Shown piece after piece: positions 4,144-5,340 of a stretch of DNA of 6,588 nucleotides. The notes under the pieces are model-generated. The model did no database searches, was not told the DNA's origin, and saw nothing but the letters and a program-made list of their open reading frames with translations. Position 1 is the stretch's first letter. The number at the start of each line of letters is the position of its first letter. This stretch comes from a virus (Duplodnaviria > Heunggongvirae > Uroviricota > Caudoviricetes): IMG/VR virus record IMGVR_UViG_2548876940_000021, positions 1-6,588 of that record; one strand, written 5' to 3'. The translations under genes were made by a program, and so were the position numbers.

Positions 4144-4488
4144 ATGTCAGATTTGGCTATGAAGGTTTTGAAATGGCAATCGACTGGCGATGTAGGCATC
4201 AGTAGCGCAACTCTTGCCTCAATCGCATGTGGACTGAAAAAGAATATCTATGGTCATAGCTTCGGTGCTCCACATGACGCAGCCGATTTCCGACGATGCG
4301 TTGCACTTGTTGAGCAGATTCCAGAAATCAGAGATTCATTCGACAAGGTTGCAAAGCGCGTTCCGGCATTCAAAGGCATCCTCAACGAATGGGATTCACT
4401 CGTTGCTCTGTTGAAGTCTGAAATGAAGACGTATGGGAACAAAGCACCAGAGACTTACAGAAGAATCAGCGAGCTACGCAAGGACTAA
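4144..4488 (+). CDS. Hypothetical phage protein, 114 aa
   Basis: GGAG at 4133-4136 then ATG at 4144. Clean ORF with ordinary composition and no family I can recognise. Terminator-like hairpins lie on both sides. Confidence 0.65.
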   Translation: MSDLAMKVLKWQSTGDVGISSATLASIACGLKKNIYGHSFGAPHDAADFRRCVALVEQIPEIRDSFDKVAKRVPAFKGILNEWDSLVALLKSEMKTYGNKAPETYRRISELRKD

Positions 4489-4545
4489 CCCACCTCACAC
4501 TCGATGAGGCCTGTTCATTGCTCAATGATATCCAGACCTACCATC

Positions 4546-4569
4546 GCCGCATCAATGCGGCTTTTTCTT
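4546..4569 (+). terminator. Rho-independent terminator-like hairpin plus T-tract
   Basis: GCCGC (4546-4550), loop ATCAAT, GCGGC (4557-4561), then TTTTTCTT (4562-4569). It lies 58 nt after the 114-aa ORF stop. Confidence 0.55.
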
Positions 4570-4611
4570 GCCTGATTTGCAGGTTCGATTCCCTATTCGG
4601 AGATAGCACTC

Positions 4612-4812
4612 ATGCAACACGAACTACAACCTGATTCACTGGTTGATTTGAAATTCATCATGGCCGATACTGGCTTCGGTAAAACCTTCATCTATGACCG
4701 GATTAAGTCCGGCGACCTGCCAAAAGCCAAAGTTATCCACGGGCGAGCAAGATGGTTATATCGTGACCATTGTGAATTCAAAAATAAGCTCTTAAGCCGC
4801 GCCAATGGGTAA
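4612..4812 (+). CDS. AlpA-family / excisionase-like HTH regulatory protein (Xis candidate), 66 aa
   Basis: GGAG at 4599-4602 then ATG at 4612. The translation LVDLKFIMADTGFGKTFIYDRIKSGDLPKAKVIHGRARWLYRDHCEFKNKLL follows the AlpA/Xis HTH pattern (..tG.s..tiY.li..G.fP.p.k.g.r..W...ev..w). It is the last gene of the + strand operon. Confidence 0.75.
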   Translation: MQHELQPDSLVDLKFIMADTGFGKTFIYDRIKSGDLPKAKVIHGRARWLYRDHCEFKNKLLSRANG

Positions 4813-4828
4813 AATAGCGGGTAAAATA
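4807..4828 (+). repeat. Tandem direct repeat GGGTAAAATA x2 (period 12) spanning the AlpA-like stop codon
   Basis: Read directly: GGGTAAAATA at 4807-4816 and again at 4819-4828, separated by GC. This is where recombinase arm-type or regulator binding sites might be expected. Confidence 0.6.
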
Positions 4829-4861
4829 TTTCTCACATCTAAAAAACTCCATTCCAATCAA

Positions 4862-4895
4862 TCCCCTGCCGCTTCAAGTAGATGTCTGCAGGGGA
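4862..4895. repeat. Perfect 8-bp inverted repeat TCCCCTGC / GCAGGGGA with an 18-nt spacer
   Basis: Read directly: 4862-4869 and 4888-4895 are reverse complements. No T-tract follows, so it looks more like a protein-binding or recombination site than a terminator. Confidence 0.55.
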
Positions 4896-5288
4896 CACCA
4901 GATACCCTTCAAACGAAATCTACCTTCACCCCGTAAAAGATAGGTTTGGCAGCACACTTGCCTTATATCTACTCATTTTTACTGCAACAGGTTGAAATCT
5001 CAGCACTGTCAGAAAGCGCTGATGACTAAACAGCCCTGGGCCGGGCGATGTAACCATCACACAGAATCCTGATAGCGAAATATGGCGTGACTCGATACTT
5101 CACTCCGCAATGCATTCCTTGATGAATTCGCAGGACCGTGATACACGGGACAGGTCGCTGAATGACGACAATGTCCTGGAAATCAGCGAACCGCGCATCT
5201 GAAGTACATTTGAGCGACTGTACCAGAACATGAATGAGGCGTTTGGATTAGGTGATTATTAGCAGGGCTAAGCACTTTAGTATTATTA

Positions 5289-5332
5289 TTTTCCGGTTGA
5301 GGGATAGGGAGATATCGACAACAACCGGAAAA
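5289..5332. repeat. Perfect 11-bp inverted repeat TTTTCCGGTTG / CAACCGGAAAA with a 22-nt spacer, 9 nt beyond the MFS gene stop; possible terminator or junction element
   Basis: Read directly: 5289-5299 and 5322-5332 are reverse complements. It sits between convergent transcription units, and neither strand has a clean U-tract after it. Confidence 0.45.
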
Positions 5333-5340
5333 GTTTACGT

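Follow-up and report, generated by a model that had tools for sequence, protein, structure and literature searches.

Repeats 3′ of torI assigned to the attR site of a prophage in the tRNA-Arg gene argW

In our analysis of a 6,588-nt stretch of viral DNA (Caudoviricetes; here called the window), the repeats that follow the torI gene very probably belong to the attR of a lambdoid/P22-like prophage that uses the IntS/TorI module of KplE1 (CPS-53), HK620 and Sf6 and sits in argW, the tRNA-Arg(CCU) gene. According to this assignment, the two GGGTAAA(ATA) direct repeats are arm-type sites for the integrase IntS and nucleotides 4886-4900 are the att core. An earlier note, made from the letters of the window, had described two exact 10-bp direct repeats at 12-bp phasing and a perfect 8-bp inverted repeat with an 18-nt spacer behind an Xis-like gene, and had suggested that they may mark an att region. 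These observations held up. The direct repeats (GGGTAAAATA) are at 4807-4816 and 4819-4828, and the inverted repeat is at 4862-4869 / 4888-4895, with its left arm beginning after 33 nt from the second direct repeat. The Xis-like gene is torI, which encodes the recombination directionality factor (RDF) of KplE1/HK620/Sf6, and mapping of phage and host homology identified the stretch as attR. The features are as follows.

4612-4812, + strand: torI, a 66-aa ORF encoding the recombination directionality factor (excisionase) of the module.
4789-4900, + strand: phage-derived part of attR (P arm and core), starting at the published attR primer CTCTTAAGCCGCGCCAATGG; phage homology stops at 4900.
4807-4816, + strand: arm-type integrase (IntS) site, copy 1, GGGTAAAATA, predicted from sequence, with the conserved unit GGGTAAA at 4807-4813.
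4819-4828, + strand: arm-type integrase (IntS) site, copy 2, GGGTAAAATA, likewise predicted, with the conserved unit GGGTAAA at 4819-4825.
4856-4868, + strand: candidate IHF site AATCAATCCCCTG, one mismatch away from the WATCAANNNNTTR consensus, located 3′ of the arm sites and 5′ of the core.
4862-4869, + strand: TCCCCTGC, left arm of the inverted repeat; this phage DNA is the complement of the tRNA-Arg acceptor 3′ strand.
4886-4900, + strand: att core CTGCAGGGGACACCA, a second copy of the 3′-terminal 15 nt of argW (tRNA-Arg CCU), which includes the right arm of the inverted repeat.
4888-4895, + strand: right arm of the inverted repeat, GCAGGGGA, part of the att core.
4901-5340, strand not given: host DNA between argW and cscB, which directly continues intact argW in the unoccupied attB of strain S1-IVC-02-A.

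The attR assignment is founded on where phage and host homology end. Free phage genomes (HK620, Sf6, HK633, IME10, Kapi1 and others) matched the window at 96-99%, and all of these matches ended at 4900; in a five-way alignment, the sequences were identical up to ...GGGGACACCA and diverged directly after it. From the other side, the match in most E. coli genomes having the right flank began at 4886, with a tRNA-Arg gene beneath it. The empty site yfdC-tRNA-Arg (argW)-cscB of strain S1-IVC-02-A reads ...TTCGATTCCTGCAGGGGACACCA|GATACCCTTCAAACG... (also ...CCTGCAGGGGACACCA|GATACCC...) and is the same as the window from 4886 on. Homology therefore switches from phage to host within the core, since phage matches stop at 4900 and host or empty-site matches begin at 4886. 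The resulting overlap of 15 nt, CTGCAGGGGACACCA, is identical to the argW 3′ end at 15/15 positions. It agrees with the published 16-nt KplE1 core, CTGCAGGGGACACCAT (PMC2951348), and K-12 annotates these 15 nt as pawZ. One and the same core has been reported for Kapi1, Sf6, HK620 and KplE1 (PMC8787464). The sixteenth base, 4901, is G, as in the local attB, and the attL of a related lysogen (strain 503440) has the phage T at the equivalent base. This is as predicted for reciprocal exchange inside the 15-nt block. A tRNA scan of the window (ARAGORN) gave no tRNA, and just the 15-nt 3′ fragment is found there; Rfam models run on 4480-5000 with E up to 10 gave no relevant match, apart from a chance sRNA match upstream.

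The closest relative, strain 503440 (97% identity over 78% of the query), has the complete arrangement yfdC-argW-intS-(44-kb P22-like prophage)-torI-cscB. The intS and attL that belong with this attR lie beyond the window, and the other prophage end was seen in close relatives only. Based on the junction mapping and the full layout of this related lysogen, the repeats lie wholly inside attR.

This attR closely resembles one that has been used in biochemical assays. Nucleotides 4789-4900 are identical at 110/112 positions to the K-12 KplE1 attR and to the HK620/Sf6 attP. In a published in vitro excision assay, attR was amplified with primer attR-IHF2, CTCTTAAGCCGCGCCAATGG, to give a 135-bp product (PMC3509656). 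This primer maps to 4789-4808 of the window and, in agreement with the report, the K-12 amplicon obtained with the reverse primer is 135 bp. The 135-bp K-12 attR recombines with attL when given IntS, IHF and TorI (PMC2951348). The attR in the window is equivalent to this K-12 site, as judged by a sequence match only. In addition, the boundary of the prophage can be fixed to the base, with phage DNA to 4900, host DNA from 4886 and a 15-nt overlap.

Several other features were seen around the junction. Essentially all of 63 phage P-arm sequences have GT at 4884-4885 (columns 95-96), where the tRNA has TC, and further to the left many lineages match the tRNA T loop (TTCGAT) again. This conserved GT/TC mismatch may define how far to the left strand exchange can extend, or it may be part of a phage-side core-type site. 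On the host side, a terminator-like sequence, GGCAGCACACTTGCC then TTATATC, is found at 4948-4969, 48 nt past the tRNA-type CCA end. An identical sequence is present 3′ of intact argW in the empty site, and the copy in the window is probably the argW terminator left at attR. At 5289-5332, just past the stop codon of cscB (5341, minus strand), lies TTTTCCGGTTG / CAACCGGAAAA, an inverted repeat with perfect arms of 11 bp inside a longer 29-nt imperfect repeat. It is probably the cscB terminator.

The identity of the upstream gene is in agreement with the attR assignment. The ORF at 4612-4812 is annotated as torI in hundreds of matching E. coli genomes, and its product is 100% identical to E. coli TorI loci by protein match. 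The PDB entry 1Z4H ('Tor inhibition protein') aligns to this product over its full length (residues 1-66/66, E 6.6e-43). TorI serves the KplE1 (CPS-53) prophage as RDF, and the same protein goes by the name HkaC in HK620 and gp18 in Sf6 (PMC3509656). The gene lies just before the attR core and is oriented towards it. Further 5′, the window carries lambdoid early genes, e.g. RecT, and 3′ of the junction it carries the sucrose permease gene cscB on the minus strand.

We also noted three features adjoining torI. Approximately 20 nt 5′ of its start codon, nucleotides 4577-4592 (TTGCAGGTTCGATTCC) match the argW T arm at 16/16 positions (chance expectation 0.01). In many divergent modules, 'CAGGTTCGATTCC' is found ∼29 nt ahead of the RDF start codon (in tandem, twice, in locus L160), and this sequence includes the TorI-binding pentamer GTTCG. 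The HK620 GenBank record labels the stretch equivalent to 4577-4592 as the pI promoter with a cII box. Together, 4577-4592 and the core at 4886-4900 read like one argW 3′ half split by torI and the P arm, and 4577-4592 could be an autoregulatory TorI site or an evolutionary scar. Just 5′ of the torI leader, an intrinsic-terminator-like hairpin, GCCGCATCAATGCGGC then TTTTTCTT, is present at 4546-4569; HK620 has another stem sequence, GCCGCCTGATGGCGG plus TTTTTT, at the equivalent place and K-12 KplE1 has no hairpin there. This hairpin may insulate torI from read-through of the early operon. Lastly, an ORF of 43 aa at 4805-4936 has the position of HK620 hkaB / Sf6 gene 17, but it crosses the phage/host junction at 4900, so that its C-terminal half is host DNA. 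A Pfam search with this ORF gave no match, and it is very likely not a gene.

Next to the end of torI, the two GGGTAAAATA copies are 12 bp apart, start to start, and copy 1 (4807-4816) overlaps the last codon, GGG (Gly66), and the TAA stop. We examined whether these repeats stand out within the window. With up to one mismatch, GGGTAAAATA occurs three times (0.38 expected), and an exact 10-mer repeated within 25 bp arose in ∼12% of dinucleotide shuffles. Perfect 8-bp inverted repeats with spacers of 3-30 nt are expected ∼3 times per window and were seen at four distinct loci. Since both the direct and the inverted repeats are weak within the window alone, the case for their significance rests on comparison.

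For this comparison, 63 distinct P-arm sequences were collected from TorI-homolog loci of Enterobacter, Citrobacter, Serratia, Pantoea, Tatumella, Rouxiella, Edwardsiella and Arsenophonus and from many viral contigs. In alignments A3 and A4, the RDFs shared ∼55-85% identity with one another. A scan of viral contigs with TorI gave identical E. coli copies only, and the diversity came from a second scan led by the most divergent homolog. The earlier note had proposed conservation at homologous junctions as a check. GGGTAAA is present at position 1 in 61/63 and at position 2 in 63/63 of these divergent sequences. Its columns are 99.5-100% conserved, compared with 55-65% for neighbouring columns; the 5-nt linker is 55% conserved and the next 36 columns 62%. 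As the heptamer is kept while the linker drifts, the conserved unit is the 7-mer GGGTAAA. The last three bases of the 10-mer differ between lineages, i.e. exact 10-mer identity is specific to the E. coli lineage. Both the 12-bp phasing and the distance from stop codon to core are constant across the 63 sequences. Because copy 1 overlaps coding sequence, part of its conservation could be at the protein level. However, the last codon of the torI homologs is GGG in 62/63 and the stop codon is TAA in 63/63, and this exclusive usage argues for a constraint on copy 1 at the DNA level.

The same motif is found at the other end of the prophage. Just before the intS start, the attL of K-12, the attL of strain 503440 and the attP of HK620 have two copies on the + strand, GGGTAAAAAG and GGATAAAATA, and two on the - strand, GGGTAAAATT and GGGTAAAAAT. 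These four are the IntS arm-type sites of the P′ arm. They carry a TAAA motif, which has been mutated (PMC2951348), and the copies after torI carry the motif of the four P′ sites. The module's int is autoregulated via arm sites that overlap the int promoter (PMC2951348). In four attP from widely differing lineages, those of HK620 and of loci L168, L123 and L127, the four P′ copies are at identical offsets past the core (+116, +127, +139 and +154), and the five GTTCG-type TorI sites and the intS -35 box are also conserved. Hence, attP has a short motif distinct from the core in both arms, with two copies in P and four in P′. Host-flanked attR loci showed no GGGTAAA cluster 3′ of the core, bar an occasional scattered match. 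A 49.9-kb locus with a whole related prophage contained nine GGGTAAAW matches compared with 2.55 expected, and five of the nine were in the two att regions. Therefore, the recurrence at the other prophage end for which the earlier note had suggested looking is seen in attL beside intS, in K-12, in strain 503440 and in the whole related prophage.

An extra GGGTAAAA copy was observed ∼370 bp inside the integrase gene (L003 2269-2279, L192 5108-5115). It is conserved in strain 503440, and the HK620 record calls it an attP repeat.

Chance matching in AT-rich DNA, which the earlier note had allowed for, has virtually no probability as an explanation of both repeats. The window-only figures (p ∼0.12 for the tandem 10-mer, and an inverted repeat at chance frequency) would suit it. 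However, the heptamer is essentially invariant in 63 divergent sequences, its spacing is fixed and it recurs in the P′ arm, and for the direct repeats these comparative data refute chance.

A second alternative, that the 10-mers are sites for the RDF TorI or an operator for transcription at the operon end, fits their position directly 3′ of the RDF gene. Short direct repeats spaced by about one turn of the helix are typical of RDF sites. Nevertheless, the published TorI sites are GTTCG, GATCG or GTCCG, and all five are on attL (PMC2951348; PMC3509656). None of these pentamers occurs in 4807-4900, and GGGTAAA agrees with the IntS P′ sites and not with the TorI motif. In addition, no promoter-like site was found at the repeats, and this end is not known to act as an operator. 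We consider a role as TorI sites or operator extremely unlikely, and assign the direct repeats to the integrase rather than the RDF because the TorI sites are of the GTTCG type and on attL. Of the functions guessed in the earlier note, the integrase arm-type site is thus retained, on motif and conservation, and the RDF site and the operator are dropped.

IntS and IHF sites on attR were reportedly mapped in two papers by Panis, in 2007 (J Biol Chem 282:21798) and 2010 (Virology 404:41). The HK620 GenBank record has a 'repeat_region attP' over exactly TGGGTAAAATAGCGGGTAAAATA (23 bases), plus an 'attP core' and repeats beside int. From motif identity, conservation, this GenBank annotation and the reported mapping, we infer that the two GGGTAAA copies are IntS arm-type sites, and the predicted IntS stretch in attR is GGGTAAAATAGCGGGTAAAATA.

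With these assignments, recombination may be outlined as follows. IntS is a heterobivalent tyrosine integrase, with its N-terminal domain predicted to sit on the tandem arm sites (4807-4828) and its core-binding and catalytic domains on the core (4886-4900), 57 bp from the arm sites, where strand exchange would occur. A bend between the arm sites and the core, most likely made by IHF, would let one integrase molecule bridge both. During excision, TorI from the adjacent gene would bind the GTTCG-type sites on attL at the other prophage end. Synapsis of attL with attR and exchange in the core would then restore attP (torI-P arm-core-P′ arm-intS) and an intact argW attB.

Published excision assays on the K-12 attR include IHF (PMC2951348). 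Matches to the IHF consensus of the quality of 4856-4868 are at chance frequency (10 in the window, 9.55 expected), and the site is therefore given as a candidate only. Within AATCAATCCCCTG, the CAA and T positions are conserved across the 63 sequences, and an A-tract precedes it. The candidate IHF neighbourhood predicted in attR is AATCAATCCCC.

The 8-bp inverted repeat does not stand as an element of its own: core forms its right arm, and complementary phage DNA its left. Specifically, the right arm (4888-4895) consists of the last two T-stem bases and six bases of the acceptor 3′ strand, and is fixed by the host tRNA. The earlier note had likened the geometry of the repeats to that of protein-binding sites; the geometry itself is as described, but the right arm is the duplicated argW 3′ end in the att core, which had gone unrecognised. 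We also considered the two arms, TCCCCTGC and GCAGGGGA, as C and C′ core-type half-sites and rejected this; attB has no left-arm counterpart at that spacing. Nor can the 18-nt spacer be the overlap region, because attP and attB do not share it.

There is about an even chance that the left arm has no function of its own, being either a vestige of tRNA-derived attP sequence or an accidental overlap with an IHF site, with the repeat incidental. Consistent with this, chance alone would give ∼3 such perfect 8-bp inverted repeats per window, and several lineages lack the repeat. The tRNA dictates the right arm, and the left arm shares bases with the IHF-like match at 4856-4868. Moreover, attP resembles the tRNA back to the T loop (TTCGAT) in many lineages, suggesting shared ancestry. 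However, two observations described below, compensatory changes that track the host tRNA and an arm that is shifted yet still pairs, are not expected of decay.

We tentatively propose, although we hold it to be less probable than not by a clear distance, that the inverted repeat is a selected + strand hairpin in the torI 3′ UTR, an acceptor/T-arm-like minihelix followed by NCCA that acts at the RNA level (mRNA end formation, stability or processing). This hairpin is compatible with the attR assignment and adds to it. In an alignment of 18 sequences (A2), the helix was 84% paired, compared with 36-59% when one arm was slid, and its covariation score was reached by 1/500 shuffles. Independently, RNAalifold predicted the same seven pairs, two of them with double changes. 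The left arm follows the host tRNA: in the Edwardsiella type, TCCCTGCATA/TATGCAGGGA, the tRNA has AGGGAAC and the left arm TCCCT. In loci L143 and L145 of this type, the pairing reaches a perfect 13 bp, GTTCCCTGCATAC/GTATGCAGGGAAC. In Rouxiella, the left arm CCCCTACA pairs with TGTAGGGG and is the match to CTGTAGGGG. Pairing persists in L128, L134 and L136 with a left arm shifted by 6-7 nt. Several other changes are C to T, giving G-U pairs on the torI-sense (+) strand only. For the window itself, the hairpin has a predicted energy of -16.9 kcal/mol (z = -3.0).

Against a selected hairpin, the repeat is missing in Arsenophonus, L148, L149, L154 and a large Pantoea clade that includes otherwise intact-looking attP (L123 and L127). 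Its absence from several clades means that it is dispensable. Independent compensatory events number two or three only, and the share of C to T changes fits a neutral transition bias. The stem has no U-tract after it, and no relevant Rfam family matches 4480-5000. In addition, equal covariation would be expected from a second, inverted recognition sequence for the integrase if it co-evolved with the tRNA target.

The E. coli-type inverted repeat is lacking in the Pantoea-clade attP of L123 and L127 (∼2028-2108). There, the whole core and the tRNA-like segment lie between the arms of another perfect inverted repeat, of 11 bp, GCTATATGGCG / CGCCATATAGC. In relatives of these two loci, GGTG pairs with CACC where the discriminator base differs. 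This is another long-range pairing around the core.

The hairpin is very unlikely to be an intrinsic terminator of torI. It does have a GC-rich 8-bp stem 3′ of the last gene on the + strand, but its loop is 18 nt, the next bases are CACCAGATACCC with no T-run, and a terminator scan was silent on the 4862-4895 hairpin while it reported others nearby.

Returning to the complement in the P arm, the broader proposal is that, in many lineages, the P-arm DNA just 5′ of the core retains complementarity to the target tRNA along its acceptor 3′ strand, tracking host variants by compensatory change, and that it forms a functional minihelix in the excisionase mRNA. We regard this proposal as doubtful. 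A P-arm complement of the acceptor strand allows the torI 3′ UTR to fold as an acceptor/T-arm-like minihelix ending in NCCA. If the proposal is true, enzymes of tRNA processing or mRNA decay, such as RNase P and 3′ exonucleases, could determine where the torI mRNA ends and how long it lasts and, through these, the dose of RDF that triggers excision. Also in that case, tRNA-like pieces would lie on both sides of the RDF gene, the other being the argW T-arm 16-mer 5′ of torI. A functional complement would add RNA-level control of excisionase expression, which would be of note to specialists in phage integration. Literature on tRNA-like structures in attP was searched and nothing relevant was found.

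In conclusion, the attR reading of the repeats is real and was guessed correctly in the earlier note, but it is already known. The organisation of these att sites has been called fully characterised (bioRxiv 10.1101/2023.11.06.565760). Since every element is explained by a biochemically dissected module, no new biology is needed. As far as checked, the sole part not already described is the P-arm sequence that is complementary to the tRNA acceptor strand and covaries with it. For annotation, it is now possible to mark attR, the arm sites and, as a pawZ-like tRNA fragment, the core, and to dismiss the ORF at 4805-4936.

The window agrees with the attR/attP family of the KplE1/HK620/Sf6 argW module in each defining feature that was tested. 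Compared with the K-12 KplE1 attR and the HK620/Sf6 attP, the window is alike in torI, both GGGTAAAATA copies, the left arm, the 15-nt core and the position relative to the torI stop. In contrast, the host flank here is the csc sucrose cluster and that of K-12 KplE1 is dsdC. The base after the core is a host-derived G here and T in K-12, and the identity block is therefore 15 nt and not 16. The prophage body here is a RecT-carrying lambdoid/P22-like genome, whereas KplE1 is a 10-kb remnant.

The P′ arm of lambda attL (P′1-P′2-P′3, H′, C′) combines tandem arm-type Int sites in the same orientation, a site for a bending protein and the core, and is used by a heterobivalent tyrosine integrase. 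The attR described here is similar in having tandem arm sites of the same orientation ∼55-80 bp from the core, with a bending site that is a candidate here. It differs in the GGGTAAA motif, in having two copies rather than three and in the 12-bp phasing. Also unlike lambda, the sites for the RDF adjoin the integrase gene, in the other att site, and the int and RDF genes are at opposite ends of the prophage. Finally, 4886-4900 is the argW 3′ end at the distal junction, and in this it resembles the displaced tRNA 3′ fragments at prophage ends, such as pawZ in K-12. Unlike the usual displaced fragments, the adjoining phage DNA carries a complement of the acceptor strand, which would allow a minihelix-like fold.
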